Origin: Alphaproteobacteria bacterium
Lineage (GTDB): Bacteria; Pseudomonadota; Alphaproteobacteria; GCA-2731375
Assembly (NCBI GenBank): GCA_030752605.1
Contig: JASMDX010000049.1
Coordinates: 57,726 to 121,725, forward strand
Reading direction: 5' to 3'
DNA: 64,000 nt
The notes under the pieces are model-generated. The model was given only the letters and a program-made list of their open reading frames with translations, searched no databases and was not told where the DNA came from. The stretch's first letter is position 1. Each line of letters starts with the position of its first letter. Of the stretch, positions 8,586 through 64,000 are shown one piece after another. The translations under genes and the position numbers were made by a program.

Positions 8586-8595
8586 CCGGTCAGCG

Positions 8596-9267: not shown

Positions 9268-9328
9268 CGAAATGCTCCCTATGGATGAGCCAGCCTTTGC
9301 ACTTTTGATGTCAGCAGGTCAGCCAGCT

Positions 9329-10197: not shown

Positions 10198-10321
10198 TTT
10201 TCAGCCCCTCCTACACTATGCCGCCTTACCTTGGCACTCCATAGTGGCAGACGGGGGGAGCGAGGTGAAGGGGCCGGATGAATTAGTGGAGAAAACCGGA
10301 GCAGCACACCCGTTCCATATC

Positions 10322-14568: not shown

Positions 14569-14608
14569 ATTCAGAGACTAAATTAAAACCATAATCTAAC
14601 GTGTTGTA

Positions 14609-15430: not shown

Positions 15431-15592
15431 GCATATTCCCCCATGTTTACGCGGCCTTTACCCGATTTATCCTAATGTCCCAGTTCACGAACCCGCGGCG
15501 GCTGGCGCCGCTTCTATAGGAAATGTGAGAGCGATCACTGGCGAACAGCACTGAAACCACCAGATATTTAGCCAAGAGCTGGAGGGAACCGT

Positions 15593-16048
15593 ATGTCGCA
15601 TCTGACCTATGAACAAGAAGCTTCGAGCCGTCAATCTCAGATAATTGCCGCAAACATCGGCGGGCCGATCATTTCGAGCGAATTGTCCAGGTACCTGGTT
15701 GTCAGCACCGTGGCATTGGCGGCGGACGTGGGTTTTTTGTACACTCTGTCCGCAGGTCTTGGGGCTCACTACCTGTTTGCCAATCCCATTGCTTTTACCC
15801 TTGGCGCCCTGGTGGCCTATTTCGGCTCCGTTCATTGGGCTTTTCGTGGCCGCAGGTTGTCCAATACGGGCCTGGAATTGGCCATTTTCGTGGCTATCGG
15901 CGTTGGCGGTCTGGCCGTCAACGAAAGCATGATGTGGCTCGGCATCGAGTTTGCGGCACTATCGCTGCTATTTGCCAAGACGGTGGCTGCCGTGACATCC
16001 TTCGCCTTTAACTTCATCATGCGCAAATTAGTCCTGTTCTCCATCTGA
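15593..16048 (+). CDS. GtrA-family membrane protein (polysaccharide-synthesis/flippase accessory)
   Basis: 151 aa with four predicted TM helices and a GtrA-like hydrophobic profile. It ends 9 nt before the next gene. Confidence 0.7.
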
Positions 16049-24838: not shown

Positions 24839-26784
24839 TCATCGCCACCGCCGGCCATGTTGATCATGGCAAGACCACTTTGGTGCGAGCTCTAACGGGG
24901 GTCGATACGGATCGTCTGCCGGAAGAGAAAAAACGCGGCCTGACCATCGATATCGGCTTTGCCTATCACGAAATCGATAGCGGGACGGACCATAAGGTGG
25001 TCATGGGCTTTGTCGATGTGCCGGGCCACGACCGCTTTATCAAAAACATGCTGGCGGGCGTCGCCACGATAGATTTCGTCCTGCTGGTAGTCGCCGCTGA
25101 CGATGGCGTGATGCCTCAGACGGAAGAGCATTTGGCCATCCTTGGTCTGTTGGGCATCCAGCAAGGCGCCGTGGCCATTACCAAAATTGATCGGACGACG
25201 CCCGAGCGCGTGGCTCAGGTTGAGGCCGAGGTTGCCGCCTTGCTGACGCCGACGCCCTTGGCAGGCGTACCCACGTTCTCGGTTTCAGGCGAGCTTGGCA
25301 CCGGTATGGATGCGTTGCGCCAGCATTTGGAAGCGGCCGCCCGCAACCATGCCGACCGCGCGGTGAACGGTCAGTTTCGCCTCTCTATCGACCGCGCCTT
25401 CACGGTTTCCGGCGCCGGCCTGATCGTCACAGGGGCGGTGTTTTCCGGTCAGGTTGCGGTCGGCGACCGTCTGATCCTGGCGGCCCGGGATAGAGCCGAG
25501 CCGATCGAGGCGCGGGTGCGCGGCCTGCGCGCCTTGGACCGTGAGGCCGAGTTGGGCCGGGCCGGGCAACGTTGCGCCATCAATATCGCAGGTGGCGAAC
25601 TGCATCAATCGCTTGTCAGCCGGGGTGATTGGCTATTGTCAGAAGCGATTTACGCGCCGGTGCACAAGTTCGATGCCCGGATCCGGGTGCTGAACAGTGA
25701 AAGCCGGCCATTGGGCCATTGGACGCCAGTGCATCTGCATCTAGCCGCCGCTGATATCACCGGACGCATCGCGGTTTTGGGCGAACGGCGCATTGCGCCC
25801 GGTGAAGATGCCCTGGCACAACTGGTATTGGATAGCCCAATAGGCGCCCTGTTCGGGGATCATTTCGTTTTGCGCGATCAATCCGCCCAACGCACCATCG
25901 CGGGCGGGATCGTCATTGATCCGTTCCCTCCCCGGCGCGGCCGTGCCCAGCCGGCGCGCCTAGCGATGTTGCGGGCCATGGAGGCGGAAGCGTCGGCCGA
26001 AGCCCTGGCGGCCATGGTTGCGGCCGCGGAAAATGGCGTCAATCTGCACCAATTCGTACAAACCCGCAATCTGACCCAGGCGGAAGCAGAACATCTGCGG
26101 CAGATTGACGGGCAGGTCCTACTGGCCGCCAATGACGATGACTTGGTGCTATCCCTTGAGCACTGGCGTCGTATCAAACAAGGGATCCTTGATACCCTGG
26201 CCACCTGGCACAAGAAACAACCCGAGGCCGTGGGCCCCAACGATAATGCCCTGCGCGCGGCCATGACATCGCCGCCCAGTCCCATTCTGCTGGCGGCTTC
26301 AATCGCGCATCTGATCGACGGGCGGACGATTATCCGCGACGGTATCTCGTTGCGCCTGCCCAGCCATGCACCGCGTCCCTCGGACGCGGATCTGGAATTA
26401 TGGAAACAGGTTTCGCTAATCCTGGAAGAAGGCGGCATTCGCCCGCCCAGAGTGCGCGAGGTGGCGGAGGAATTGAAGATAGATCCTGCCCGCCTGGAAG
26501 CTTTCCTAAAACGCTGCGCCCGCCAGGGCCGCCTGATGGCCGTGGCGCCGAACAGATTTTTCCCGCCCGCCGCGGTCTGGCGATTGGCGGCGGTGGTTGA
26601 AAGGTTAAGCGCGGCAGTGGGCGAGGAAGGTTTCACCGCCGCCGCCTTCAAGAATGACACCGGTATTGGCCGCAACGTGGCAATCGAGGTGCTGGAATTC
26701 TTCGACACCGCCGGCTTGACCCAGCGCCAGGGCAACACCCGGCGACTGCGCCGCCCGGCAGCGGAAGTCTTTGGCGACGCCTGA
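24835..26784 (+). CDS. selB: Selenocysteine-specific translation elongation factor
   Basis: EF-Tu-like GTPase motifs ([20 protein letters not shown]), followed by the long SelB C-terminal winged-helix extension. 649 aa. Confidence 0.9.
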
Positions 26785-27337: not shown

Positions 27338-28882
27338 TTAGATTTGCCGGCCAGCCCGCTCCCAATAAGGTTGACGCAGCTTTCGTTTAAAAATTTTTCC
27401 CGTATCTTCGCGCGGCATGGCGTCATGAAACGTTACCTCGCGCGGGATTTTATAGGCCGAAATATGCTGGCCCAGATATTCCCGTACCGCCTCCACCAAT
27501 AATGTCTCTCCGGGTTGTGGTTCGATCGCGGCCGCGACGCTTTCACCGAATTCATCATGAGGAATGCCAAATACAGCGCAATCCTGCACGCCGGGCATCT
27601 CATGTAACGCCGCCTCGATCTCGGCAGGGTAGATGTTTACGCCGCCCGAGATGATCATGTCGCGCTTGCGGTCGTTCAGGAACAGGTAGCCATCCTCGTC
27701 AATGTAGCCAACGTCGCCATTCGTGACCATGCCGTCGCGTTCGATCTCGGCCCGCTTATCATCTTTGTTATGATAGGTGAAATCGGAAAGATTTGGCATG
27801 GTCATATAGATTTCGCCACTTTCCCCCCGGCCCAGAACCTTGCCGTCATCGTCATAAATGCGCACCACAGTGTCCTCCTGGGGTCGGCCCACTGTGCCGG
27901 GTTTGGCCAGGGCATCGGCGCTGGAGGCAACGGAGACGATGCCGGCCTCGGTGGAGCCGTAATATTCGAAGATTACCTCACCCCACCATTCGATCATCTT
28001 GGTCTTGGCCTCGGGCGGACAGGGTGCCGCGCCATGGATCACATGCACCAACGATGATAAGTCGTATTTGGCTTTAATCTCGTCCGGCAGACGCAGCATG
28101 CGCATGAACATGGTAGGCACCACGTGCATATGGCTGATCTTGTGCTCATGGACGGCTCGCAGCAGGCCTTCGGGATCGAAACGCGGCAACAGATGAATAT
28201 CGTTACCAAGGGCCATGGCGATGGAAGCATAGGCGCCCGGAGCGGAGTGGTACATCGGCCCGGTCATGGCGCATACACCACCCATCCCAATGCCGAACGA
28301 CCGCATGGCCAATTCCCCCAATCGGGCCTGGTTCTCAGGCGAGGTGGGTTCCCGGCGCACGCCCTTTGGATTGCCTGTGGTACCCGAGGTATAGATCATG
28401 CTACCCCGCTGCAGGGGCGGCGCTCCGGTCCAAGGCTGGAAACCATCGCGCCAGATTTCATAGTCCGTCATACCAGCCGCCACCGCCTGATTTTCCGGCG
28501 GTATACTGTAAGCATCGGCGATTTCGGGCGGCGTGGCGCAAACCAGAACGGAGATACCGCCGGGCACCTCGGAGGCGATGGCGGGCAGCAGATCCGCATG
28601 CACCACGACCGCCTTGGCGCCGGAGTCCGAGAGCACATACCCCGCTTCCTCCGCCGTGGCATGCCAATTGACCGGGACCGCATAGGCGCCGATCAGATTG
28701 CCAGCAATCTTGGTTTCCAACATGGCTATATCATTGCGCATGACAGTAGCGAAACTGTTGCCATCACCAACTCCGAGGGACACTAGCCCAGCCGCCAGCT
28801 TGGCACCATTCAGCGCCACCTCTTCCATGGCCACCTTCCGGTCGCCGCTATAAACGTAATAGGTCATGGCTTTCCAACCCAC
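27338..28882 (-). CDS. AMP-forming acyl-CoA synthetase (AMP-binding enzyme)
   Basis: YTSGTTGNPKGV AMP-binding signature. 514 aa; an alternative start is at 28867. Confidence 0.85.
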   Translation of the reverse strand: MGWKAMTYYVYSGDRKVAMEEVALNGAKLAAGLVSLGVGDGNSFATVMRNDIAMLETKIAGNLIGAYAVPVNWHATAEEAGYVLSDSGAKAVVVHADLLPAIASEVPGGISVLVCATPPEIADAYSIPPENQAVAAGMTDYEIWRDGFQPWTGAPPLQRGSMIYTSGTTGNPKGVRREPTSPENQARLGELAMRSFGIGMGGVCAMTGPMYHSAPGAYASIAMALGNDIHLLPRFDPEGLLRAVHEHKISHMHVVPTMFMRMLRLPDEIKAKYDLSSLVHVIHGAAPCPPEAKTKMIEWWGEVIFEYYGSTEAGIVSVASSADALAKPGTVGRPQEDTVVRIYDDDGKVLGRGESGEIYMTMPNLSDFTYHNKDDKRAEIERDGMVTNGDVGYIDEDGYLFLNDRKRDMIISGGVNIYPAEIEAALHEMPGVQDCAVFGIPHDEFGESVAAAIEPQPGETLLVEAVREYLGQHISAYKIPREVTFHDAMPREDTGKIFKRKLRQPYWERAGRQI

Positions 28883-30278: not shown

Positions 30279-31973
30279 TTACGCAACCAGGTCCCGCAAC
30301 TCCCGGCGCAGTACTTTGCCGACGGGAGATTTGGGAATATCGTCGATAAACTGAATACGTTTTGGCACCTTGTAGTTGGTCAGGCCATCATGGCAATGGG
30401 CAATCACAGCTTCCTCGGTGACTCCATCGTCGTTGCGCACGATGAAAGCCATGGGCACTTCGGAGGATTTTTCATCCGGGATACCGACCACGCCGACCTC
30501 GACCACACCGGGGAGCTTGGAGATGACATCCTCGATCTCATTCGGCGAGACATTGAAGCCCGAAACCAGGATCATATCTTTCTTGCGGTCCACGATCTCA
30601 AGAAAGCCATCCTCGTCCATCACCGCGATGTCGCCGGAATAGAGCCAGCCGTCCTTTAAAGCTTCTGCCGTCGCATCCGGACGGCCGAAGTAACCCTTCA
30701 TGATGGTCGGGCCCTTGAACAATAGCTCGCCGGGCGAACCAATGGGTTGATCGACGCCCTCGTCATCGACGATGCGCACGTCCAGACCAGGCACTGGGAT
30801 ACCGACCGAGCCTAGACGATTCTCACCCAATGGGTTCAGACTCATTACGCCGCAGCATTCCGTCATGCCATAGCCCTGATAGATCTCGACGCCCGTGGCA
30901 TCGGCCCAACGCTGGGCCACGCCAGTCTGTTGCGCCGCACCGCCAGAGCCGCAGAAAACCACGTCCTTGAGCAGATCACGGCTGAACCAGTCTTCCTCCA
31001 ACAGCACCGCGAACAGAGTATTGATGCCGGTAAAGCGGGTGACTTTGAAATTCTCGAACGCGGTTTTCAAATTTGACGGCGGGCGCGGTGACGGCACCAG
31101 AACCATGTGGTCGCCGCCAGCAATACCGAGCACGAAAATCAGGGCGAAGGCGGTAATGTGATACAGTGGCAGGATTACCAGGGTGGTATCGCCATCAGGA
31201 TTGGTGATTTCCTCGGCCAGGCAATTAGCCTGCGCGGCGTTGGCGAGGATGCCCGTATGGCTTAATTCCGCGCCCTTGCTGCGCCCCGTGGTGCCGGAGG
31301 TATATTGGAACAAGGCCGAATCCGCGCCGCTCTGACCTGCGGTATACGACGCGATATCGCCGCCATTCCGCGCCCGTGCGCCTTGACTTAGTGCATCGGC
31401 GAAATCGATATGGGCGTGCGCCATATTGGGAATGGCCTTTTTCACGTGCTTTAGCACGATGCCGATGATCAGCTTTTTCATAAAAGGGAAGAAATCCAGC
31501 AGGGAAATCTTCACCACCTGGCGAACATCCGTGTTACCGACGACCTCGTCGACCTTATCGCCGAACATATCGATAATGATCAGCAACTTGGCCTTGGAAT
31601 CGTTGAGCTGATGTTCCATTTCCGGTGCGGTATAGAGTGGGTTGATATTGGTACAGATTGCACCGGCTAGAAAGGCGCCGGCGGCGGCAATGGTGAAGTC
31701 AATGCAATTGGGCGTCATCATGGCAACGGTCTCGCCCCTTTGCAGCCCGGCGGTCTCGCGCAGATAGGCGGCGAAATCCCTGGAATGCTCCAGCCACTCG
31801 GCATAGTTCAGCGTGGTCGCCGCGCCGTTGGGCAGCACGGTGGTCATCGCCGGACGGTTGGCGAATTCCGTGCCCGCATGATTAATCAATTCGACCAGTG
31901 TACCATGCGCCATGGCGTCCGCATCGAAGTTCCTAGCCGTTTCGCTGTAATACTTCTCCCAAGGTCGCGACAT
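30279..31973 (-). CDS. Long-chain-fatty-acid--CoA ligase (AMP-binding, FadD-like)
   Basis: YTSGTTGRSKGA motif. The start is set at the ATG at 31973 (MSRPWEKYY), which is preceded by a GGAGGCGG RBS. Confidence 0.85.
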   Translation of the reverse strand: MSRPWEKYYSETARNFDADAMAHGTLVELINHAGTEFANRPAMTTVLPNGAATTLNYAEWLEHSRDFAAYLRETAGLQRGETVAMMTPNCIDFTIAAAGAFLAGAICTNINPLYTAPEMEHQLNDSKAKLLIIIDMFGDKVDEVVGNTDVRQVVKISLLDFFPFMKKLIIGIVLKHVKKAIPNMAHAHIDFADALSQGARARNGGDIASYTAGQSGADSALFQYTSGTTGRSKGAELSHTGILANAAQANCLAEEITNPDGDTTLVILPLYHITAFALIFVLGIAGGDHMVLVPSPRPPSNLKTAFENFKVTRFTGINTLFAVLLEEDWFSRDLLKDVVFCGSGGAAQQTGVAQRWADATGVEIYQGYGMTECCGVMSLNPLGENRLGSVGIPVPGLDVRIVDDEGVDQPIGSPGELLFKGPTIMKGYFGRPDATAEALKDGWLYSGDIAVMDEDGFLEIVDRKKDMILVSGFNVSPNEIEDVISKLPGVVEVGVVGIPDEKSSEVPMAFIVRNDDGVTEEAVIAHCHDGLTNYKVPKRIQFIDDIPKSPVGKVLRRELRDLVA

Positions 31974-32121
31974 CTTTTCCGCCTCCATCCCCAAAGCCTC
32001 TTTTATGCCCAAGACGGTATCGTGATTTGCCGCGTAAAACAATTACTACCGAAAGAAAACGCGCAATAACGATGCCCAATTGTTAAGCTGGGCGTAGAAA
32101 CAGAAACTCAGGATCGAGCAT

Positions 32122-35240: not shown

Positions 35241-36893
35241 CTATTCCTTCAACAATCGCCGGAACATTTTGCCGGTCGCGCTGAGCGGTAGTTCTTCCCG
35301 AAATTCAACCGCGCGCGGCACCTTGTAGCCGACCATGCGCTGCTTGCAGAAAGTAATGATATCGCCTTCCGCCACCAAGCCACGATGACTTTCCTTCAGC
35401 ACCACGAAGGCCTTCACCACCTCACCCCAATAGTCGTCGGGCTGCCCGGTCACGGCGGCCAATTGCACCGCCGGATGGGCATAAATGACTTCCTCCACCT
35501 CGCGCGGCCAGACCTTATAGCCGGCGCTGTTGATCAGGTCTTTCTTGCGGTCAACGATGGTGAAATAACCCTCGGCATCCATCAACGCGATATCACCGGT
35601 ATGGAACCAGCCGCCCGCCATCGCCATCGCCGTTTCCTCCGGCCGCTTCCAATAGGCCTTCATCACTTGCGGTCCACGGATCACCAACTCGCCTGCCTCG
35701 CCCGCCATCAGATCGGTTCCGGTGTCGGGATCCACAATCTTAGCGTCGGTGTCGCGAAGCGGTATGCCGATCGAGCCCGGCTTGGCCCGGTGTGGTGGAT
35801 TGGCATGGGTCAGCGGGCTGGTTTCCGTCAGGCCATAGCCTTCGATCAGCACCTCGCGGCCAACCAGTTCGTCAAATGCCGCCTTGACACTGGCCGGCAA
35901 TGGCGCAGCCGAGGTGCGGCAGGCGCGCAGTGATGAATAATCGGCTGCCTGCGCCGTCTCGTCATTGAGCAAGGCGATGAACATGGTTGGCACACCGAAC
36001 AAACGGGTGGCGCCGTAATGTTCCACCGTCCGGGCGATCACGCCTGGGCGAAAGTGTTGGAACAGCAGGATCGTCGCGCCTGCATACAAAGGCACGTTCA
36101 GGGCCCCCGACATGCCGCCGCTGTGAAACATGGGTAGGGCGCCAATGCAGGTTTCGGCGCCTGTTTCGAAGGCATACCATTCGGCAAACTGCATGGTGTT
36201 GGCGACGATGTTTCGGTGGCTCAGCATCGCGCCCTTAGGCTGGCCGGTGGTGCCGCCGGTATAGAGCAGCACCGCCACATCTTCCGCCGGGTCGAGCGGA
36301 CAAGGCGTGATTTCTTCTCCGGAAAATGCCAGCAGCTCCGCTAAGGTCAGGGCGCCGGCCTGCGGCGCGGCTTCACTTTCGTCGGCCAGTACCAATTGGA
36401 TGCCCAAGTTGGCGGCGACCTTGTCGGCCACCTCCGCCCGTGCGTAGGTGGCCAGTAGAATGTCAGCCTCGGCGTCTGCCAATAGAGAAGTGGCTTCGCC
36501 CTCGGTCAGGGCCGGGTTGATCGGTACCACCGTCGCCCCCAGCAACCAGGCGGCGTGATAACCCATCACCAGTTCGGCGCAGTTGCCCAACGCCAGGGCG
36601 ACGTGGCCACCCTGGCCAATGCCCAGTTCACGCAGACCGCCAGCCAGGGCTTGTACCGAGCGCCAAAGCTCTCGGTAGGTTATATTGCGGGTTTCGGTAC
36701 CACTTTCATGGTCGATAATGCACAATGCAGAGCGTTCGGAAAAACGTTCGAGATTACGCTGCAACAGCCACCAGGCCGGCACGTCGGGGTAGTCAAGCGT
36801 GGCGGGAAGATGCGCCGGCCAGGCGTGGCGCCAAGGGGGCGTCCCGTCAGCCCCGGATCGGCTAGGCACCTCCCGAGGCCACCTCCAGGCCAT
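35241..36893 (-). CDS. AMP-forming acyl-CoA ligase
   Basis: LLYTGGTTGQPKGAMLSH motif. 550 aa. Its start overlaps the upstream OFOR gamma gene by 32 nt. Confidence 0.85.
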   Translation of the reverse strand: MAWRWPREVPSRSGADGTPPWRHAWPAHLPATLDYPDVPAWWLLQRNLERFSERSALCIIDHESGTETRNITYRELWRSVQALAGGLRELGIGQGGHVALALGNCAELVMGYHAAWLLGATVVPINPALTEGEATSLLADAEADILLATYARAEVADKVAANLGIQLVLADESEAAPQAGALTLAELLAFSGEEITPCPLDPAEDVAVLLYTGGTTGQPKGAMLSHRNIVANTMQFAEWYAFETGAETCIGALPMFHSGGMSGALNVPLYAGATILLFQHFRPGVIARTVEHYGATRLFGVPTMFIALLNDETAQAADYSSLRACRTSAAPLPASVKAAFDELVGREVLIEGYGLTETSPLTHANPPHRAKPGSIGIPLRDTDAKIVDPDTGTDLMAGEAGELVIRGPQVMKAYWKRPEETAMAMAGGWFHTGDIALMDAEGYFTIVDRKKDLINSAGYKVWPREVEEVIYAHPAVQLAAVTGQPDDYWGEVVKAFVVLKESHRGLVAEGDIITFCKQRMVGYKVPRAVEFREELPLSATGKMFRRLLKE

Positions 36894-54415: not shown

Positions 54416-55109
54416 ATGGATCAGCTCAAAATCTCGGTACGCACATTCGCCACGACCGAACCATGGCGGGCGAGGTGCCCGACGGCTGTTTACCCAATTT
54501 TCTGGGCGTGATGACGCAACATGCCTTTGTTACCGACCATGCACCGTCCAACAGTCTATTGGCGGTCGATGTCTAGGCCAAACCGACACCCCCTCCCAAT
54601 TTTAACGATGGTGAAATATTCTTCGAGCAGGCCGCCATTCATAACGCGATCACGGCAGCGTCGGGGCAATTCGTCGCCAATCTGCAGGGCGACATTACAA
54701 CGGAGCAGGTTCTGCTTGACCTACTTATCCATGGCCGTTGCGGCGTGCAGCAGCCTTATACGGTGGAAGGCGGCACACGGGAATTCGATTTTGGTTTCGT
54801 CTCTTCGACGCCCCTACGGGAATTTTTCAACCCTTGACCATGTGGATCTGATGGATGTGGATATCCAAGGTGGGGAGCGCGAGGTCCTGCCCGTAGCAAT
54901 GGATGTGATCAGCCAAAAGGTAAAACGCATTCTTCTCGCCACCCATAGCGCCGATTTGCACCAGGCGATGTGAGATCTATTTTTCGAGCGCGGCTGGATG
55001 TGCGAGGCGGATTACGCCCCGAATTCGCTGCATCAATTACACCGGGGTAGCTTTGAAAACAACGACGACATCCTGGACCTGTTCAATCTTGATCTAGCCG
55101 CCACATAAA
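54416..55109 (+). pseudogene. Degraded FkbM-family methyltransferase-like gene
   Basis: No intact ORF. Three frames give successive fragments: MAGEVPDGCLPNFLGVMTQHAFVTDHAPSNSLLAVDV(TAG); ...TTEQVLLDLLIHGRCGVQQPYTVEGGTREFDFGF...(TGA); FSTLDHVDLMDVDIQGGEREVLPVAMDVISQKVKRILLATHS...(TGA); DLFFERGWMCEADY. The 'DLMDVDIQGGEREVL...ILLATHS' segment resembles the FkbM C-terminal region. Local GC is lower. Confidence 0.4.
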
Positions 55110-57158
55110 CCAGGCGTGACTGTCATCCAACCGGGCCCGCCAACCGGGCGGCACCAGGATTGTCGTGGTGTCCTCCTCGATCACCGCCGGGCCCTCAATC
55201 TCACCACCAAAGGCAACCTTGGCACCATCATATACGGCAACCATGAGGCTCTGATCAGGCGCGAAACTAGCCTGGCGGCTATGGCTGATGGCCTGTTCCG
55301 GCGTCTGATCGCCCACGCCCGGCATGGCGATACGAGATAGCAGCGCACCGCGCTGGCCATAAGCGATAACGCCAAGGCCCATCAGCTCCCGTTCGCAATC
55401 AGGATCAGCAAATGTGAAGGCGCGTTCGTGCTCTTGATCAAACAGGGTTTCGATCGGCCCCATGCCGTTGGCAAAAATCTCTGCCTCGGCTAAGGTCAGG
55501 GTCAGAACCCCTAACTCGCCCAGATAACGCACATCCATGGTGCGTTGCAGACGGATATGCTCGGGATCAAAGCCCTCCGCCGCCAGATCGGCGCGGGCCG
55601 ATGCCATCATTTCACCGAATTGGCGGTTAATATCGCCGGCATTGCAATCGCTGAAACGGGCAGCATGGTTACGGCTGTAATCATGGCGGACATCAGCGAT
55701 AACGGCACCAAAAGAACAGAGCAGGGAGGCGACGCGCGGCACGATAATCCGCGTTACGCCAAGGCTCTCGGCGATGCGGGCTGCGTGCGCACCACTGCAA
55801 CCACCACCGCATATGAAAGCGAAATCGCGCAGATCATGGCCCTGTTCAGTCGAAATCTGGCGCACCGCGTTGGCCATGTTCTCGTTCACCAGGGTGTAGA
55901 TCGCGTAGGCGGCTTCCAAGCCATCGACGCCCAGAGGCTTGGCAATTGTGCCGCGGATGCTATCGCGGGCCAGATCGCCGTCGATGGCCATGGCCCCGCC
56001 CAAAAGCTGGCGGTCCGAGAAATAGCCCAAGGCGACGTTGGCATCGGTCACCGTCGCCGCCTCTCCGCCACGGCCATAACAGGCGGGACCGGGCCAGGCC
56101 TCCGCGCTTTGCGGGCCCACCTGCAGCAGGCCGCTGTCATCGATCCAGGCGATGGAGCCGCCGCCCGCGCCTAGGGTGCGCACATTGACCATGGGCACGG
56201 CAACACGATAACGGTGTACATCCACGTTCTTGGCGGTGTCAATATGGCCCTGATGGACCAGGCTAACATCCAACGAGGTACCGCCCATATCCAGCGTGAT
56301 GACATTGTCGATATCGAACAGCCGGCCAAAAAAACGGCCCGCTGCGGGACCAGCAGCCGGCCCGGAATCCAGGGCCAGAACGGGCCGTTCACGCAAACCA
56401 GCGGCTGATGTAGTGCCGCCGTTGCATTGGATATAGCGGATCGCCTTGTGAAATCCGGCACCCTCCAGATTGCTTTCCAGACGGCCGATATAGTCATGCA
56501 ACCGGCTGCCCAGCGCGGCGCACAAGGCGGTGGTCGAGAAACGCGGGTATTCCCGCAATTGCGGCGATACGATGGAGGATAGATAGACCGGCGCACCAGG
56601 CATTTCCTCGGCCAACAGATCGCGGATGCGCTCCTCGTGAGCCGGGTTGACAATGGACCATAGCAGGCAGACGGCCACCGCTTCGACACCATTGTCGCGG
56701 AATACCGCTGCCGCCGCCCGCACCTGAGCCTCGTCCAAAGGCTGCAACACTAAGCCGTCCTTGTTGATACGTTCATCGATGGGCAGGCGCAGATGGCGCG
56801 GCACCAGGGGCGTGGGCGGCGGCTGGATATAGTCATAGCGCCGCTCCTTCAGACCCTCGCGCAGCTCCAGAATATCACGAAAGCCGGCAGTGCACAGCAT
56901 GCCCGTCCGCGCCAGTTTGCCTTGGATCAGGGCGTTGGTGGCAATCGTGGTGCCGTGCACGATCAAATCGAACTGCCGCAACAAAGCCGGAATATCAATT
57001 CCGGACTGCGCCGCCAGCTCGCCCAGCCCCTCGTCAATTACCGAGTCGAGGTCTTCCGGGTTGGAAGACACCTTAGCGACTTGCAGATCGCCATTGTCAG
57101 ACAGCAGAACAAAATCAGTGAAGGTTCCACCGATATCAATACCCAGGCGGTGACTCAT
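55083..57158 (-). CDS. Hydantoinase/oxoprolinase family protein, A subunit (HyuA-like)
   Basis: LGIDIGGTFTDFVL N-terminal ASKHA motif. 691 aa. Confidence 0.9.
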   Translation of the reverse strand: MSHRLGIDIGGTFTDFVLLSDNGDLQVAKVSSNPEDLDSVIDEGLGELAAQSGIDIPALLRQFDLIVHGTTIATNALIQGKLARTGMLCTAGFRDILELREGLKERRYDYIQPPPTPLVPRHLRLPIDERINKDGLVLQPLDEAQVRAAAAVFRDNGVEAVAVCLLWSIVNPAHEERIRDLLAEEMPGAPVYLSSIVSPQLREYPRFSTTALCAALGSRLHDYIGRLESNLEGAGFHKAIRYIQCNGGTTSAAGLRERPVLALDSGPAAGPAAGRFFGRLFDIDNVITLDMGGTSLDVSLVHQGHIDTAKNVDVHRYRVAVPMVNVRTLGAGGGSIAWIDDSGLLQVGPQSAEAWPGPACYGRGGEAATVTDANVALGYFSDRQLLGGAMAIDGDLARDSIRGTIAKPLGVDGLEAAYAIYTLVNENMANAVRQISTEQGHDLRDFAFICGGGCSGAHAARIAESLGVTRIIVPRVASLLCSFGAVIADVRHDYSRNHAARFSDCNAGDINRQFGEMMASARADLAAEGFDPEHIRLQRTMDVRYLGELGVLTLTLAEAEIFANGMGPIETLFDQEHERAFTFADPDCERELMGLGVIAYGQRGALLSRIAMPGVGDQTPEQAISHSRQASFAPDQSLMVAVYDGAKVAFGGEIEGPAVIEEDTTTILVPPGWRARLDDSHAWFMWRLDQD

Positions 57159-58919
57159 CTTGTACGCAACTTTGCTGTTTTGGTTTTGTTTATGGCGTTG
57201 TTGTCGGGATCAATGACCACGCCATAATCCAGGGCCGCGCCTTCTATGGAGACAAAGCCATTAATGACATCGCGGCGCACCGCCTCCTCGTCCCTATCAA
57301 AGGCGTTACCCACGCCGCCGCCGCCCGGCGGACACATTTCCAGGCGGCCGCCACGGGTGGAATGCAAGCGCGAGGCGCTGCCCGATTTACGTATGTTGCC
57401 ATCGGGATCAATGGCATTGCGCTGCCCCAATTTAGGTTCCAGCATGGTCGATTTCGCGCCCTGGACGCTGAGGGCGGGAAAAGTATCGATGGTACCGTGG
57501 AAGCGCGCGGTCTGCTCATGATCGATGGGTTCCCATTCCGTATCCACTGCCAGGCCGCCGCGCCATCGCCCCGCACCGCCCGAATCCGTGCGGTATTCCA
57601 GGCGGCTGATCAGAAACGGCATCTCGTACTCCAGCAATTCCACTGGCTCCTTCAACACCGCGCCGCCAGAATTCTCGGAACCAACCCCGGACCAGCCATC
57701 AGCGCCATGGGCTGCCCCACCGCCGCCCGAAGAGCCGCCGTTCGGATGAAAATGGCCATAAAAAGCGCCGGTATCAGGGTGAATGCCAGCCAAGACGATG
57801 GAAGCAGCGGGGCCCCAGCCGGCGGTCTGGCGTTCATCGGGTATGATTTTCGAAAGGGCATCGCGCACGGAATCAACGATTTCACAGAACGGCTGCGTGG
57901 TGCAGCCCAAGGTAGGCGCCGGCGGCACCTGGGCATTGGTGATGGTGCCAAAGGGGCCATAGTCAATATCCAGGGCACGGTAGAGGCCATCATTGAACGG
58001 CGGTTGGAGCCCAAGGGCAATGGTCACGGCGTGGCCAACGGCGGCGTGGGTGGCGCCAAAAGGTGAATTGCGCACCTCGCGCAACTGCTCGGGCGACGAC
58101 AGGGTGATGGCCATCCTGTCGCCAGTCACGGTGACTTCGGCCGCTATTTTCTTGTGATCATCGCCCTTCCTTGCGGACAGCCAGCTTTCACCCTGCTGGC
58201 TGCCGTCGGGCAGATCGGTAATGGCCTTGCGGACCCGGCGTTCGGTCATGTCGTATAATGCCTCAATCCCAGCCCTGGTCACGTTAATGCCGTATTTTTC
58301 GCTCATGGCGGCAAGGCGTCGGCCCGCGATTTCAGCCGCCGCGATCATCGCCAGCATGTCGCTATGCTGTTGCTCGGGAAAGCGGATGTTGTTGAAATAA
58401 AGCCGCATGACATCATCGCAAGGTTCGCCAGCAGCAATGATCTTCAAGGGTGGAATACGGATGCCTTCGCCATAGCTGTCCGATTGCGCCCGGCGCAGAT
58501 CGACTGGTGACGGCCCGCCTAGATCCAGCCAATGGGCCCGGATCACAGCCCAAAACAGCAGCTCGTTATCCACGAAGACAGGCCGCAGCAAAGCCACATC
58601 GTTCAAATGCAGACCACCGAAAGCTGGATCGTTGCAGAGAAAGGTGTCGCCCGGCGTGATATCGCCCTCATAAGCTTTCGCCACGGCACGGCAAACAAAA
58701 GGTATGGAGCCCACATGCACGGGTAATTCCGCATCGCCCTGGATCATCTGCCGGGCCTGCCAGTCACATAACGTGCAGGAAAAATCCTTGGCCAGTTTAA
58801 ACACCGGCGAACGCGCCGTGCGCACTACGACCTGGCTCATTTCGTTGGTGATGGAGGTCAGCGCGCCCTGCATGGTGGCCAGGGTGGTAATATCCACATC
58901 GGTCTTATCTGCGGCTCGC
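57155..58919 (-). CDS. Hydantoinase B/oxoprolinase family protein (HyuB-like)
   Basis: HyuB-like sequence. The start is set at the ATG at 58919 (MRAADKTDVDITTL) with a GGGAGA RBS. 4-nt overlap with the hyuA-like gene. Confidence 0.85.
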
Positions 58920-59112
58920 ATAGTTTCTCCCAGAAATGCCATACAGAATAACAAAGCGTGGATAATACAGCACATTGTCATTGCCGGGGAGTTTTCCATT
59001 CAGCGTCGCCTATGTCGCTGCTGGCCGGGGCCGAGAAATCCGTGATAGCCTTGGCACAATAATTTTCAATTTGTATGCCGCCCGCGGGACGGATAAGGAA
59101 AGGTTTACCGCC

Positions 59113-59925
59113 ATGGATTTCAAGCATATTAAATTCGACATCAGCGATGAAATCGCGACGATTACTTTGAATCGCCCGGAGGCGCGCAACGCCCTGAGCA
59201 GGGAAATGCGGGAGGATTTCCGCACCGCCCTGAAATTGGTCAAGGAACAGGCGGGCGAGGAAATCAAGGCGCTGATCCTGACCGGCGCGGGCGGTGCCTT
59301 TTGTGCCGGCGGCGATATCAAGGGCATGGGCAGCGACGAACGGACCTCATTGATAACGCGGCGTGGCCTGCGCCTGGATCACGACATCATCTATGACTTC
59401 GCGCATGTGGAGCTGCCTGTGATCAGCCTGGTCGATGGCCCGGCGGCGGGCGCGGGTTGCAATCTGGCCCTTGCTGCGGACTTCGTTTTCGCCACGCCCA
59501 AGGGCATATTCATGCAGGCATTTGGCCGCATCGGCGCCGTGCCTGATTGGGGTGGCTTTTATATCCTGCCGCGTCTGGTCGGACTGCAACGGGCCAAGGA
59601 GCTTGTTTATTCGGCCAGGAAGGTCGGCGCCGAGGAGGCTAAGGAGCTTGGCATGATTCTGGACGTGGTCTCGCAAGACAACGCCATGGACGAAGTGCGC
59701 GAGTTCGCCGGGCGCTTCCGCACCGCCTCCACCGCCGCTATTGGCATGGCGAAAAACGTCCTGAACCAGTCTTTTAATCTGGATCACCGCACCTTGTTGG
59801 AACTGGAAGCCGATGTCCAGGGCATGGCCTTGGTGACGCCCTATCACAAGGCGGCGGTAAAACGTTTCAAGGATAAGGAGCCGTCGCTGTTTGATTGGGA
59901 AAAATTGAGCGCCGAAAAGAATTGA
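59113..59925 (+). CDS. Enoyl-CoA hydratase/isomerase (crotonase) family protein
   Basis: ITLNRPEARNALS and LTGAGGAFCAGGDIKG crotonase motifs. The start is the ATG at 59113 with an AGGAAAGG RBS. Confidence 0.8.
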   Translation: MDFKHIKFDISDEIATITLNRPEARNALSREMREDFRTALKLVKEQAGEEIKALILTGAGGAFCAGGDIKGMGSDERTSLITRRGLRLDHDIIYDFAHVELPVISLVDGPAAGAGCNLALAADFVFATPKGIFMQAFGRIGAVPDWGGFYILPRLVGLQRAKELVYSARKVGAEEAKELGMILDVVSQDNAMDEVREFAGRFRTASTAAIGMAKNVLNQSFNLDHRTLLELEADVQGMALVTPYHKAAVKRFKDKEPSLFDWEKLSAEKN

Positions 59926-59953
59926 ACAGCGCATAAAAACCTGGGAGTTCGAA

Positions 59954-60883
59954 ATGCATTTGGACGGAAAAACAGCCATCATTACCGGCGCCGGGCGCGG
60001 CATCGGCATGGAAGTCGCGTATCTGCTGGCCAAGGAAGGTGCCATCGTCACGGTCAATGATCCAGGGTTGGGCCGTGGTGGTGAGGATGAGGGCGAGACC
60101 CCGGCCGAGGAAGTCGTGGCTCAGATCAGGGCGGACGGCGGCACGGCAGAGGCCAATACGCACTCCGTCGCCGATTACACCGCTACGGGCCGCATGATCC
60201 AAAAGATGGTGGATGATCACGGCAAGATCGACATCATCGTCAATTCCGCCGGGCTGCTGCGCGAACGGATGATCTGGAACATGACCGAGGAAGACTTCGA
60301 CATGGTCATCAATGTGCACCTGAAGGGCCATTGGAACATGTGTCACCATGCCATCAAGCACATGCGAGGAGCCGGTGGCGGCCGCATCGTGAATTTCTCC
60401 TCCGACGCCTTCAAGGGCTCGGTCGGACAGTGTAACTACAGCGCCGCCAAGGCCGGCATCATTGGCCTGACCCGGTCCATCGCCAAGGAAACCTCCCGCT
60501 ACGGCATCACCGCCAACGCGATCTGCCCCTCCGCCGATACCCGCATGACCATCAACGACGCCGTCATCGCCAACCGAGCCCGCAAGCTGGCGGACGGCCT
60601 GATCAGCCAAGAAGAATTCGACCGCGCCTCCCGCGCCCGCGGCCCGGAATATATCGCGCCGATGGTTGGTTATTTGTGTACCGATGCGGCCTGGGACGTG
60701 AATGGCCATGTCTTCCATGTGGAGCGGAACCGCATCCACAGCTATTACTACGGCGAGGAACGAAAAGCGCTGCATATCGGCGGCGATGGCATGTTCACCA
60801 TGGACGATTTGCTGCGCGATATCCCCTCCACCATCATGAGCGAGGCCCCAAGGGTCGCGGCACCTTACGAAAAGGCCGGGTAG
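59954..60883 (+). CDS. SDR-family oxidoreductase
   Basis: TGAGRGIG cofactor motif and YSAAKAG (YxxxK) active-site motif. Confidence 0.85.
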   Translation: MHLDGKTAIITGAGRGIGMEVAYLLAKEGAIVTVNDPGLGRGGEDEGETPAEEVVAQIRADGGTAEANTHSVADYTATGRMIQKMVDDHGKIDIIVNSAGLLRERMIWNMTEEDFDMVINVHLKGHWNMCHHAIKHMRGAGGGRIVNFSSDAFKGSVGQCNYSAAKAGIIGLTRSIAKETSRYGITANAICPSADTRMTINDAVIANRARKLADGLISQEEFDRASRARGPEYIAPMVGYLCTDAAWDVNGHVFHVERNRIHSYYYGEERKALHIGGDGMFTMDDLLRDIPSTIMSEAPRVAAPYEKAG

Positions 60884-60894
60884 GGCATCCATTT

Positions 60895-60915
60895 CAGGCG
60901 GGCACGGCCCGCCTG
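60895..60915. terminator. GC-rich hairpin (9-bp stem, 3-nt loop) between convergent SDR gene and SDR-fragment; possible bidirectional terminator
   Basis: CAGGCGGGC-ACG-GCCCGCCTG is a perfect 9-bp inverted repeat 12 nt after the SDR stop. There is no strong T-tract. Confidence 0.35.
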
Positions 60916-60925
60916 AGAGCCCCTT

Positions 60926-61066
60926 ATTGCGCCGTCCAACCGCCATCGACCAGCAGCGCCGCACCGGTGATTAGGGCCGCCGCCGGTGAGGATATGGAAC
61001 GGAAAATGGCGAAACCATGGCAACGCGTTTCCCGCCGGAAAAAAAACATCATCATTTTTACTCGTC
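60926..61066 (-). pseudogene. Short ORF whose C-terminus matches an SDR C-terminal segment (probable gene remnant)
   Basis: Reverse translation gives ...ISSPAAALITGAALLVDGGWTAQ(TAA). The SDR C-terminal consensus is ...ITGQxLxVDGGW. Only about 47 codons from an ATG, with no Rossmann N-terminus. Confidence 0.3.
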
Positions 61067-61159
61067 AGCGCGGCTGCTTGGGCTATGATATTTGCGATCG
61101 AAGACGATCAATTAGGGGAATCGAAAGGTGGGGAAAGGAACAGACTAGGGAGAATAATC

Positions 61160-64000
61160 GTGCGCGTAGCTGGCTGTGATCTGGGCAAGGCGTCCGTGGG
61201 GTTCGTAACCGCCGCGGTGACTGAAGACGGTAAGGTGGAGATAGAGGGCGCTGGCTATAAATTGCACGAAGGCGATCCCCTGGGCTTGTTCAAGAAGTGG
61301 TACCACGACAACGATATCGCATCCTGTGCCGCTCTGGCCGCGACCGGCGTCTATGCCGATGAACTGCGCGAGCCTGTCTTGATTCTGCCCGAGGATTCCT
61401 GTCAGGAAGCCGCCCTTGAGATCAACCCAGACCTTGAAGACGCCCTGAACCTGGTATCCATCGGCGCCCGCGGCTATGGCGCTCTCAGCCGCAAACCGGC
61501 CGAGGGGCAGAATGGCGCCAAAAACGGCGTGGGGCCGAAGTATCACTACCAATACCTCGAGAACGACAAATGCTCGTCCGGTACAGGCGAAAATATCCAG
61601 AAGATCGCCGACCGTTTCGGCCTGGGCGTTGACGATGCGGACAAGGCGGCGCAGGCAGCCGACGAGGCCATTCCCATCACCGCGCGTTGCTCTGTTTTCG
61701 CCAAATCCGAGATGACCCATTTCGCCAACCAGGGCAAGGCCACCGGTGATTTGTTCAAGGGCTATTTCGGCTCCGTCGCCCGCAACACCTATGCCCTGCT
61801 GATGCGCAACCGGGTCGGCGGCCCGGTTTACCTGATGGGCGGGCCGGCGCGGATCGAGAGCTTCCGCCGCTCGTTCGAAGAGATGTTGGGCGAAGAGGTA
61901 AAGGTGCCGCCGCTGGCGGAGTGTTTCGAGGCCGTGGGCGCCGCCGCGATCGCCGCCGAACAGGCGCGAAACACCTCCCTCGCCGCCCTGCCCGCCAAAC
62001 CGACGGAACTGATCGCGCCGGCCGAGAACCGCTTCCAGGTGCAGGCACCGGCCAGCGGCTGGCAAGAGCATGTGACCATGATGGCGGAACCGGAAGTGCC
62101 CACCGGCGTGGCGGAGACGCCAACCGTTCTGGGCCTTGATCTCGGCTCCACCGGGGCCAAGGCTGTCCTGACCTCGATCGAAACCGGCGAGATCGTGCTC
62201 GACGTTTACGACAGCACCCGGGGCAACCCGGTCGATGCCGCCCGCCGTCTGGTCATGACCATATTGGCGCAGGCCAAGGCCGACGTGCGTGCCATCGGCG
62301 TTACCGGTTCGGGCAGGGAAGCCGTCGCCACGTTGCTGCGCGCGGTCTATCCCGACAACGACAATATTATCGTACTGAACGAAATCGTCGCCCACGCCAC
62401 CGGCGCGGCGCGCTGTGATGTGGATGGCGGGGCCGATCTGTCGGTGATCGAGATTGGCGGCCAGGACGCCAAGTACATCCGGGTCCAGGGCGGCCGTATC
62501 GTCGAAAGCGACATGAACAAGGCGTGCAGCGCCGGCACCGGTTCGTTCCTGGAAGAACAGGCAACGATTTACGATGTCGACGACATACAAGAGTTCATTG
62601 ATCTGGCTTCGTCCGCCAAGCGGCCACCCGATCTGGGCATGATGTGCACGGTCTATGTCGCCGATGCCGCCTCGCAAGCCATCAAAGAAGGTTTTGGTCG
62701 CGACGATATCTTCGCCGGCTTTCAATATTCGGTCATCCACAACTATCTAAACCGGGTGATGGGCCAGCGCACGCCGGGGGCGCGGATCTTCTTCCAGGGC
62801 AAGCCGGCTTCCAACCCATCCCTGGCCTGGACCCTGGCCGCCGTCACCGGGCGCGACATCGTGGTGCCACCCAATCCCGGCGCCATGGGCGCCTGGGGCA
62901 TCGGCCTTTGCGCCATCAAGGAAATTGGCCAGGACGCGCTTGACGCCGCGCCCAGCCTCGATCTTGCCGATATTTTGCAGGCGGAGATCACGGCGCGGAT
63001 GGAATTCCGCTGCCGCGACGCCAAGTGCCAGACGCTTTGTCCCATCGAACGCACCACCATCACGGTAGATGGGCAGAGCCGCCAGGCGGTCTCCGGCGGA
63101 GCCTGTCCGAAGTTCGAGATCTCCACCGCCAGCCAGCCGAAATTGGCCAAGGATGCTCCGAACCCGTTTGAACAGCGCCAGGCGTTGATCGACAGCTTCG
63201 TGATCGGGCGCGAGGGCGCGCCGAGCCTTGCCATACCGGAGCTTAGCGCCCTCAACGGGCACATCCCCTGGCTCGCCACTTTCGCGGCCGAACTAGGCTT
63301 CTCGGTCAAACTGCTGCGCTCCACGGGCAAGTCCCTGGCGGCTGGCGAACAGCTTTGCAACAGTTTCGACAGTTGCGGCCCGGTCAAGATCGCCCATGCG
63401 GTCTGTGACCTGTACGACGGCATCTTGCTGTTTCCAAAAGTATTCCGCATCTCCGACGTCAATGGCCGGGGCGGCCAGACCTGCATGACCGAACAGGCCA
63501 TGCCGGACATGATCGAACGCTCCCTGTTGGCCCGTGGCAAGGGGGCCAAGGTGGTACGCCCACGCATCTCCTTCGGCGACGGTCTGGACACACCAGAACT
63601 AGTCGAGGAAATGCGCCGCATCGCCAGCCAGATCGGCGCTGATCCGGCCAAGATCGGCGATGCTGTCAGCGCTGCCGCTCGGGCGCAGCTACGCTACGAA
63701 GAAGACCTGATGGCAATTGGCCGGGAAGCGATGGCGTATGCCAAGGCCAACGATCTGCCGGCGGTCCTGCTGGTCGGTCACCTGCACGTCATCAACGACC
63801 CGGCGATCAATGCCAACATCCCCCATCTGGTCCGCCGTAACGGCGCCATGGCCATTCCTGTGGATTGCTTTGAAATCGACGATCAGACGCCGGCCATGTG
63901 GAAAGCCTATTGGGGCGATGACAACCGGGCCATCCGGGCCGCAGTGCAAAGCCGCGAGATGGGTGATGTCTTTCCGGTCTTCCTGGCCTCATTCGGCTGC
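61160..64000 (+). CDS. Partial (3'-truncated by window) giant CoA-substrate-specific enzyme activase-type protein: two BadF/BadG/BcrA/BcrD ASKHA ATPase modules fused to an HgdB/dehydratase-like domain
   Basis: GTG at 61160 sits 8 nt downstream of a GGGAG RBS. I translated 947 codons to position 64000 without a stop. Module 1 has VAGCDLGKASVG...KCSSGTGENIQK; module 2 has VLGLDLGSTGAKAV...KACSAGTGSFLEEQ. Then come Cys-rich segments (CRDAKCQTLCP, CNSFDSCGPVKIAHAVCD). It is absent from the ORF track only because it has no stop inside the window. The ORF-track entries 61145-62740(-) and 62743-63651(-) are its antisense shadows. Confidence 0.8.
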   Translation, partial: MRVAGCDLGKASVGFVTAAVTEDGKVEIEGAGYKLHEGDPLGLFKKWYHDNDIASCAALAATGVYADELREPVLILPEDSCQEAALEINPDLEDALNLVSIGARGYGALSRKPAEGQNGAKNGVGPKYHYQYLENDKCSSGTGENIQKIADRFGLGVDDADKAAQAADEAIPITARCSVFAKSEMTHFANQGKATGDLFKGYFGSVARNTYALLMRNRVGGPVYLMGGPARIESFRRSFEEMLGEEVKVPPLAECFEAVGAAAIAAEQARNTSLAALPAKPTELIAPAENRFQVQAPASGWQEHVTMMAEPEVPTGVAETPTVLGLDLGSTGAKAVLTSIETGEIVLDVYDSTRGNPVDAARRLVMTILAQAKADVRAIGVTGSGREAVATLLRAVYPDNDNIIVLNEIVAHATGAARCDVDGGADLSVIEIGGQDAKYIRVQGGRIVESDMNKACSAGTGSFLEEQATIYDVDDIQEFIDLASSAKRPPDLGMMCTVYVADAASQAIKEGFGRDDIFAGFQYSVIHNYLNRVMGQRTPGARIFFQGKPASNPSLAWTLAAVTGRDIVVPPNPGAMGAWGIGLCAIKEIGQDALDAAPSLDLADILQAEITARMEFRCRDAKCQTLCPIERTTITVDGQSRQAVSGGACPKFEISTASQPKLAKDAPNPFEQRQALIDSFVIGREGAPSLAIPELSALNGHIPWLATFAAELGFSVKLLRSTGKSLAAGEQLCNSFDSCGPVKIAHAVCDLYDGILLFPKVFRISDVNGRGGQTCMTEQAMPDMIERSLLARGKGAKVVRPRISFGDGLDTPELVEEMRRIASQIGADPAKIGDAVSAAARAQLRYEEDLMAIGREAMAYAKANDLPAVLLVGHLHVINDPAINANIPHLVRRNGAMAIPVDCFEIDDQTPAMWKAYWGDDNRAIRAAVQSREMGDVFPVFLASFGC

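Follow-up and report, generated by a model that had tools for sequence, protein, structure and literature searches.

An intact giant gene runs off the end of the window

The window analysed here is a stretch of 64,000 nucleotides from an alphaproteobacterial contig (JASMDX010000049.1, positions 57,726 to 121,725), and its right-hand end carries the first part of a very long gene for a two-activase fusion protein, which we call giant gene 1. On translation, a stop-free frame of 947 codons ran from 61160 to 64000 on the forward strand and reached the window edge. At the base composition of the sequence (~60 % GC, ~3.2 % stop codons), the chance of 947 stop-free codons in random sequence is estimated at ~4e-14. 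A sequence-only reading of the window had described a frame of at least 947 codons from GTG 61160, preceded by a ribosome-binding site, and had remarked on its absence from the open reading frame (ORF) track. Both points held: AGGGAG lies 7 nt upstream of the GTG, and the ORF list leaves out frames that run off the source.

The homologue search returned a protein (P0001) that matched the 947 residues throughout with 100 % identity and has a full length of 1,422 aa. P0001 is carried by two loci, L002, from a Rhodospirillaceae metagenome-assembled genome (MAG; GCA_002731375.1), and L003. Over the window's final 8,542 nt, L003 shows 2 mismatches (99.98 % DNA identity), so that L003 is effectively the window's genome continued. 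In L003, giant gene 1 comprises 1,422 codons without a stop or frameshift and its product is identical to P0001; the DNA of the ORF was also identical in two further assemblies. The early downstream stop or frameshift that the sequence-only reading had named as evidence against its proposal was not found. Giant gene 1 is a real, intact gene of 1,422 codons.

The gene call in L002 begins giant gene 1 48 codons further upstream (1,470 aa; the extension is window-equivalent 61016-61159, L002 5558-5701). The GTG at 61160 is favoured over this start by the N-termini of homologues, by the ribosome-binding site and by the identical start context of a tandem paralogue, giant gene 2. The protein has the layout Act1-Act2-Cys4 linker-Red1-Red2, where the Act domains are activase modules and the Red domains have the fold of the subunits responsible for catalysis in benzoyl-CoA reductases (BCR) and 2-hydroxyacyl-CoA dehydratases (HAD). 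The features of the pair are:

61147..61152 (+): ribosome-binding site AGGGAG, 7 nt 5' of GTG 61160, read from the sequence; the paralogue is arranged alike
61160..64000 (+): the first 947 of the 1,422 codons of giant gene 1, which would end at window-equivalent 65428
61160..62029 (+): Act1, ~residues 1-290, ASKHA fold intact, ATP motifs degenerate
61571-61573 and 61688-61690 (+): Act1 cluster ligands Cys138 and Cys177, from the 1HUX/4EHT alignment
62120..62929 (+): Act2, ~residues 321-590, canonical HgdC-type ATPase module
62525-62527 and 62645-62647 (+): Act2 cluster ligands Cys456 and Cys496, from the 1HUX alignment
63011..63106 (+): Cys4 linker, C618-x4-C623-x3-C627(P)-x21-C649, candidate extra metal site
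63227..64000 (+), continuing past the window: Red1, first BCR/HAD-fold catalytic-type domain, with DUF2229 at residues 692-903
63374-63376, 63482-63484 and 63998-64000 (+): Red1 three-cysteine site, Cys739, Cys775 and Cys947 (the window's last codon)
Window-equivalent 65459-69721, projected, outside the window: giant gene 2 (P0006), 1,420 aa, beginning 31 nt after giant gene 1

P0006 and P0001 are paralogues with 73 % identity. Giant gene 2 starts with GGGAGAG, a spacer and then GTG CGC GTA, and giant gene 1 opens with the identical codons. Measured against the orthologous pair in a third locus, L001, the ratio of non-synonymous to synonymous substitution rates (dN/dS) was 0.127 for giant gene 1 and 0.142 for giant gene 2, values that place both paralogues under purifying selection. 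The order of the pair is reversed between L001 (5575-14260) and L003 (5702-14263): giant gene 1 is orthologous to the second gene of L001 (85 %) and giant gene 2 to the first (81 %). This indicates that the duplication is older than the split of the genomes and that the pair was rearranged afterwards. Tandem duplication of the giant gene is rare. The 90 %-identity cluster of the giant protein holds 21 member sequences, one of them on 44 contigs. The second paralogue may heterodimerise with giant protein 1 or take a second substrate.

Two activase modules, only one with canonical ATP motifs

The Pfam model BcrAD_BadFG (PF01869) matched two stretches of the giant protein (136 bits; cut-off 31.5), and the NCBIfam model TIGR00241, 'acyl-CoA dehydratase activase', scored 178 bits against a cut-off of 125.4. 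The giant protein belongs to the HgdC/BcrAD-type family of ASKHA ATPases. These matches, together with DUF2229 in the C-terminal half, bear out the two BadF/BcrAD modules and the Cys-rich dehydratase-like segments proposed from the sequence alone, the latter being HgdA/B-like domains. In the cluster of the paralogue, one member carries the source label COG3580, COG1924, COG3581, in agreement with the COG1924/COG3580/COG3581 annotation suggested there.

Act2 gave the best Pfam stretch (residues 324-580) and matched the PDB entries 1HUX, 4EHT, 9GAI_D and 7YYL_E at E ~1e-18 to 1e-20. Its ATP motifs are canonical (DLGSTGAK, EIGGQDAK). Act1 has GCDLGKAS and IGARGYG where the canonical motifs are GxDxGS and EIGGQDxK. 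When both modules were searched for the pair DxGST..K and EIGGQDxK, it was present in Act2 and absent from Act1, which makes the two an asymmetric pair. The N-terminal subdomain of Act1 was confidently predicted as an ASKHA core, with a predicted local distance difference test score (pLDDT) of ~90 over residues 1-110, and Act1 residues 131-272 aligned to HgdC (1HUX) and HadI (4EHT) with both cluster cysteines matched. The model of the N-terminal half (pLDDT 85.2) gave Foldseek TM-scores of 0.79-0.86 against MbdQ, HadI, HgdC and DCCP-R, the reductase of the double-cubane cluster protein (DCCP); confidence in the model falls exactly at the two cluster loops.

Conservation of cysteines was scored in an alignment of 62 sequences, made up of three clade members and 59 full-length sequences, each of which represents one 50 %-identity cluster of an exhaustive search with P0001 residues 600-1422. 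An invariant set of 14 cysteines runs through the superfamily, four in the activase half, four in the linker, three in Red1 and three in Red2, with C623 of the linker counted among them at 56/62. In the activase half, Cys138/Cys177 and Cys456/Cys496 take the NDKCAAGTG and ISSTCTVFAES positions of 1HUX and were present in all 62 representatives.

A cysteine linker and two catalytic-type domains fused in cis

In the linker, C618, C627 and C649 were found in 62/62 representatives and C623 in 56/62. These four cysteines probably form an extra metal site, either a relay [4Fe-4S] cluster or a zinc site, with the metal itself deduced from the pattern.

Pfam DUF2229 (PF09989) matched residues 692-903 with 88.6 bits (cut-off 29.4). 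The HGD-D model (PF06050) stayed below its gathering score of 28.4 on both paralogues, with 12.3 bits for P0001 and 16.5 bits for P0006. The giant protein nevertheless has the two-Rossmann-domain fold of BCR/HAD catalytic subunits, and DCCP entries were the sole significant Foldseek matches for the Red region. In the predicted models, the kinship of the Red domains with BCR and HAD subunits is thus visible by structure and not by the PF06050 model. In all, the activase half is joined in cis to ~800 residues with the BCR/HAD catalytic fold, whose cluster ligands are conserved.

The Red1 cysteines and those of Red2 (C1076, C1109, C1373) were invariant in 62/62 representatives, with spacings of C-x35-C-x171-C in Red1 and C-x32-C-x263-C in Red2. 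DCCP and BzdN use six cysteines for one [8Fe-9S] double cubane, and HAD and BzdO use three for a single cubane (Fuchs et al. 2025; Jeoung et al. 2020). The [8Fe-9S] cluster of DCCP is bound by a 7-Cys motif, CX19CX18-19CX29CX166-170CX32-34CX32C (PMC7317905), which we sought in the Red domains and found to be absent. Three plus three invariant cysteines without the DCCP motif correspond to a HAD-like cluster pattern, so that each Red domain would carry a single cubane.

Eight additional cysteines are 93-100 % conserved in the window's clade (115 sequences, at least 56 % identity) and rare in the rest of the superfamily. Several of them stand right beside ligands, in CNSFDSC, CSGKEC and CWGC. 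Hydropathy scans found no transmembrane segment in the giant protein and likewise none in the plasmalogen synthase PlsA, so this feature does not discriminate between the two.

A deep branch separate from PlsA

Two PF01869 stretches with DUF2229 are the architecture of PlsA/PlsR (plasmalogen synthase) and Ger (glycerol ester reductase) (PMC13159169, PMC12838417), enzymes that turn lipid ester bonds into vinyl-ether or alkyl-ether bonds (PMC13159169, PMC12838417, PMC11150832). Authors in the field state that sequence alone cannot yet separate PlsA from Ger. Fusion proteins of this kind had been called poorly characterised in the sequence-only reading. That description does not fit the architecture as such, of which PlsA/PlsR and Ger are characterised examples, but it does fit the window's branch, a distinct and deep branch of PlsA/Ger-type fusions without a characterised member.

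To place PlsA, we recovered the E. faecalis gene by using the gene-specific part of a published plsA cloning primer as an exact probe of the metagenome collection (10 matches). The recovered ORF has 1,415 codons and its end falls within one base of the reverse primer. BLASTP of this PlsA against P0001 gave 27 % identity over 920 residues (E = 4e-66), and identity over the overall alignment was 21 %. A neighbour-joining tree of 70 sequences placed PlsA in the superfamily's other deep half, and every nested clade around the window protein left PlsA out in 100/100 bootstraps. Homologues on plasmid records (Listeria, Fusobacterium, Collinsella and others, from Firmicutes and Fusobacteria) were also distant, at 29 % identity or less. 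By these comparisons the giant protein is a homologue of PlsA with a like build and not its orthologue.

Branches of the superfamily differ in function. D. alkenivorans Ger2, 25.9 % similar to Ger, gave no ether lipids where Ger did (PMC11150832), and architecture alone is therefore not predictive. A Myxococcales MAG contig (L064) carries two giant fusions at 29-2992 and 8243-10951, ~5 kb apart, which come from different deep branches and are 27 % and 51 % identical to P0001. Like Ger and Ger2 in D. alkenivorans, this pair suggests that the branches are not redundant. Ger2 was also considered as a possible match for a Desulfatibacillaceae clade member (153.3 kDa, compared with 153 kDa for Ger2). 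We rejected this equation as unproven because P0164 and P0121 are metagenome-derived and many clade members weigh 153-160 kDa; no protein named for D. alkenivorans was found among the top 120 relatives.

Genomic neighbourhood

The hydantoinase, crotonase and short-chain dehydrogenase/reductase (SDR) neighbours reported earlier are real and occupy 55083-60883:

55083-57158 (-): HydA, divergent from the giant gene
57155-58999 (-): HydB, divergent from the giant gene
59113-59925 (+): crotonase, start from the L003 gene call, assigned by Pfam and NCBIfam
59954-60883 (+): SDR, assigned by Pfam and NCBIfam, co-directional with and upstream of the giant gene
61062..61089 (+): promoter-like site TCGTCA-16 nt-TATGAT in the 276-nt gap between SDR and giant gene, weak evidence

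A consensus scan of the gap 5' of the giant gene gave 1 promoter site where 1.2 were expected by chance, which is not significant alone; the promoter and terminator scan of the gap found nothing significant, and an Rfam scan of 60700-61300 matched no family. The hydantoinase pair is nearest to caprolactamase (NCBIfam CapA 749 bits, CapB 460 bits, both below the equivalog cut-off of 1000) and would probably be an ATP-dependent lactamase or carboxylase. Its association with the giant gene is uncertain. Crotonase and SDR are possible pathway partners of the giant protein, in an association that is likewise uncertain.

In the window's species the order is conserved (HydA and HydB on the reverse strand, then crotonase, SDR, giant gene 1 and giant gene 2 on the forward strand, the same in L002 and L003), and L001 has crotonase followed by the two giant genes. 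At the locus of P0017, an acyl-CoA ligase and a desaturase-family gene precede the giant gene, with HydB and HydA convergent. Other relatives with at least 58 % identity have TetR, a 4HBT thioesterase and then the giant gene, or TetR and the giant gene, or a thiolase-like gene and DUF35 ahead of it. One such relative (L089) has a lone giant gene and has only the downstream block in common with the window's species. In L003 this block includes, ~4 kb past the window end, a luciferase-like oxidoreductase at 14274-15128 (-), which passed the cut-off of TIGR03619 (F420-dependent luciferase-like monooxygenase family, LLM; 256 bits against 167) although it comes from an alphaproteobacterial MAG; a crotonase and a glutathione S-transferase follow, and the block is conserved also in L089.

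A tblastn search of 84 loci placed hydantoinase, crotonase and SDR neighbours in the window's species alone, the exceptions being few, weak and isolated (a 47 %-identical HydA-like match ~7 kb upstream in L032 and two SDR-family matches of 31-33 %). The link of these genes with the giant gene is confined to its closest relatives. All-against-all clustering of flanking ORFs, in which high-GC loci yielded spurious ORFs, revealed no recurrent neighbour except an AraC-type regulator in four Desulfobacterales loci, and the neighbours of the giant genes in L021 and L075 had no common theme. L021 has a giant gene with 68 % identity; two multi-4Fe-4S-ferredoxin proteins are encoded ~1.4 kb downstream of it, at 13888-15683 (+), and are candidate electron donors. 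The recurrence of acyl-CoA enzymes just upstream in the closer relatives is suggestive but not conclusive, as acyl-CoA genes are abundant in the host genomes.

Elsewhere in the window, a 10-kb stretch holds three genes of the AMP-binding acyl-CoA ligase type (27338-28882, 30279-32042 and 35241-36893, all on the reverse strand). SelA (23369-24838, +; selenocysteine synthase, E = 4e-159) overlaps SelB (24835-26784, +; the selenocysteine-specific elongation factor) by 4 nt; ARAGORN found no tRNA of any kind in the whole 64-kb window, tRNA-Sec included. An ORF of 601 aa at 17824-19629 (+), without a Pfam match at E <= 1e-5, lies between two genes for FAD-dependent oxidoreductases.

Host and distribution

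The presence of such a gene in an aerobic-type genome had been called unusual. That judgement is reasonable, and its basis is circumstantial: the window encodes flavoenzymes that use O2 (an amine oxidase, oxidases of the DAO type and a luciferase-like monooxygenase), and clade members came from Tara Oceans metagenomes of the surface and the deep chlorophyll maximum (DCM), one DCM sample included. These data fit an aerobic host for the window but do not prove it. At 52 % identity or more, the clade also takes in Desulfobacterales and other anaerobes.

Proposed mechanism and substrate

We believe that the giant protein belongs to the BCR/HAD superfamily and works as a self-contained radical enzyme of low potential, driven by ATP, and we regard this general mechanism as very probable. 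Our inferences on the types of cluster, the path of the electron, the stoichiometry of ATP and the chemistry are as follows. Act1 and Act2 would form a pseudo-dimer with one bridging [4Fe-4S] cluster on Cys138, Cys177, Cys456 and Cys496, which cellular ferredoxin or flavodoxin would reduce. Binding and hydrolysis of ATP, probably at Act2 alone because the Act1 motifs are degenerate, would lower the potential of the bridging cluster. From there the electron would be driven, with the Cys4 linker as a possible relay, to the pair of 3-Cys [4Fe-4S] clusters in Red1 and Red2. Of these clusters, one would have an open iron site, at which the substrate carbonyl could be converted to a ketyl-type radical for reduction and/or dehydration.

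For the substrate, our tentative choice, somewhat short of an even bet, is an acyl-thioester of the acyl-CoA type rather than a membrane glycerolipid, since the closer relatives stand repeatedly beside acyl-CoA enzymes. To the full reading, general mechanism and acyl-thioester substrate together, we assign a probability of roughly 0.5.

Several points weigh against this reading. The only characterised enzymes of this architecture act on phospholipid esters and not on CoA esters. The giant enzyme is normally stand-alone, with no neighbour conserved family-wide, and the window is rich in acyl-CoA genes (three acyl-CoA ligases and two crotonases), which weakens inference from the neighbourhood, since adjacency could partly be due to chance. 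Given the 276-nt gap and the promoter-like site between SDR and the giant gene, the two may not be co-transcribed, and no electron-donor gene adjoins the giant gene in the window. In addition, the ligand cysteines were assigned to clusters from the alignment and not from model coordinates, and the putative loss of ATPase activity at Act1 is read from its motifs.

The main rival is a Ger/PlsA-type ether-lipid enzyme that would convert the sn-1 (and sn-2) ester of a membrane phospholipid to an alkyl or vinyl ether, here in marine Alphaproteobacteria of oxygenated water. The Act1-Act2-Red1-Red2 build is identical to that of the characterised enzymes (PMC13159169, PMC12838417), all 14 invariant cysteines recur in E. 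faecalis PlsA, and the giant gene is usually a lone gene, like plsA and ger. Neighbours at some loci include TetR regulators, a gene of the fatty-acid-desaturase family and an acyl-CoA ligase. By the loose homology criteria of the literature the protein counts as a 'Ger homologue', and two-activase plus DUF2229 matches have been reported in sponge Proteobacteria MAGs. Oxygen is a two-sided argument: Ger is active under anaerobic conditions only and is reported as restricted to anaerobes (PMC13159169), whereas L. cremoris PlsA functions in aerobically grown E. coli (PMC12838417). Against the ether-lipid function stand the low identity to PlsA and to the plasmid-record homologues, the placement of PlsA in the other deep branch in all bootstraps, the different ATP motifs of Act1, the eight clade-specific cysteines, the failure of Ger2 to make ether lipids (PMC11150832) and the co-occurrence of two branches in one genome (L064). 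On balance we consider this function unlikely, at about one chance in four by our reckoning of the same evidence.

A DCCP-like reductase of a small or non-acyl molecule (acetylene, hydrazine, azide-type or other), with the acyl-CoA neighbours coincidental, seems to us improbable; the Foldseek matches of the Red region to DCCP entries are in keeping with it, and the 3+3 cysteine pattern is not that of DCCP.

The proposal of the sequence-only reading, that the protein passes electrons in trans to a dehydratase or double-cubane partner encoded separately nearby, is very improbable. Two activase modules are present, and stand-alone activases do serve HAD and DCCP partners in trans. However, ~800 residues of BCR/HAD fold with conserved ligands are already fused in cis, the adjoining gene is a second full-length copy of the fusion, and none of the window, L001, L002 and L003 has a stand-alone HGD-D or DCCP gene within 10 kb. 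The expected double-cubane partner is thus missing from these loci and, as the catalytic partner is part of the fusion, is not required, and the cysteine pattern of the protein itself is of the dehydratase/BzdO type. A decaying relic, which the degenerate Act1 motifs and an apparently aerobic host for a typically oxygen-sensitive family might suggest, has a negligible chance in view of the uninterrupted and elsewhere identical ORF, the low dN/dS of both paralogues, the retention of all 14 ligand cysteines and the size of the 90 %-identity cluster. The trans-acting activase and the pseudogene are effectively excluded.

A bolder reading would be that the clade consists of oxygen-adapted ATP-driven Fe-S radical enzymes of very low potential at work in bacteria of the oxygenated ocean, with the eight extra cysteines and the single working ATP site as adaptations of this branch and the paralogues as a heterodimer. 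We regard this idea as speculative and rather doubtful.

Implications

The chemistry of enzymes of the BCR/HAD type is among the most reducing in biology, and these enzymes are regarded as hallmarks of anaerobes; homologues of Ger and PlsA now serve to predict the makers of ether lipids and of biomarkers of the branched glycerol dialkyl glycerol tetraether (brGDGT) type. The giant gene belongs to a large, well-conserved branch of the same architecture that is phylogenetically separate from characterised PlsA and that occurs commonly in marine metagenomes of oxygenated water. Should the branch make no ether lipids, maps of 'ether-lipid potential' drawn from homology count too many; should it make them, aerobes are to be considered as candidate sources of the biomarkers. 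In either case, the two genes of the tandem pair are intact and clonable and can be used for asking how such chemistry survives in an aerobe.

Comparison with known systems

The HAD systems HadBC/HadI and HgdAB/HgdC consist of three polypeptides, whereas the giant protein has all of these parts on one. It differs from them further in its activator, a fused pseudo-heterodimer with one degenerate ATP site, and in the additional Cys4 site, and its sequence identity to HadB/C is 12-14 %. Among class I benzoyl-CoA reductases (BzdNOPQ, MbdONPQ), BzdN has a 6-Cys [8Fe-9S] double cubane, in contrast to the 3+3 invariant cysteines found here, and the NCBIfam models of BCR subunits scored only 65-67 bits on the giant protein, far below their cut-offs of 380-578.

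DCCP and DCCP-R of C. hydrogenoformans resemble the scheme proposed for the giant protein in that an ASKHA [4Fe-4S] reductase injects electrons, in an ATP-dependent way, into an Fe-S protein with a Rossmann-like fold, and DCCP-R (7YYL_E) matches Act2. DCCP is a two-gene system, with a separate DCCP-R and a DCCP of ~420 aa, whereas the giant protein is a fusion.

The closest likeness in build is to the ether-lipid enzymes. Known forms of PlsA are the single ORF of E. faecalis and the PlsA/PlsR pair of C. perfringens (Q8XL48/Q8XL47). E. faecalis PlsA (Q835P9-type) has the same module order and nearly the same length as the giant protein (1,415 and 1,422 aa), with all 14 invariant cysteines in common. 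Its Act1 motifs are canonical (GIDVGSTTVK, ELGGEDAK), unlike the GCDLGKAS and IGARGYG of the giant protein, and it has none of the eight clade-specific cysteines. Hosts of PlsA are anaerobes or facultative anaerobes. Ger (T. maritima Tmari_0479, AGL49404; D. alkenivorans SHJ90043), compared here by its published description, combines two PF01869 stretches with PF09989 and a weak PF06050 match, as does the giant protein, and its 'BBD...' architecture of ~1,400-1,460 aa matches the layout found at the end of the window.

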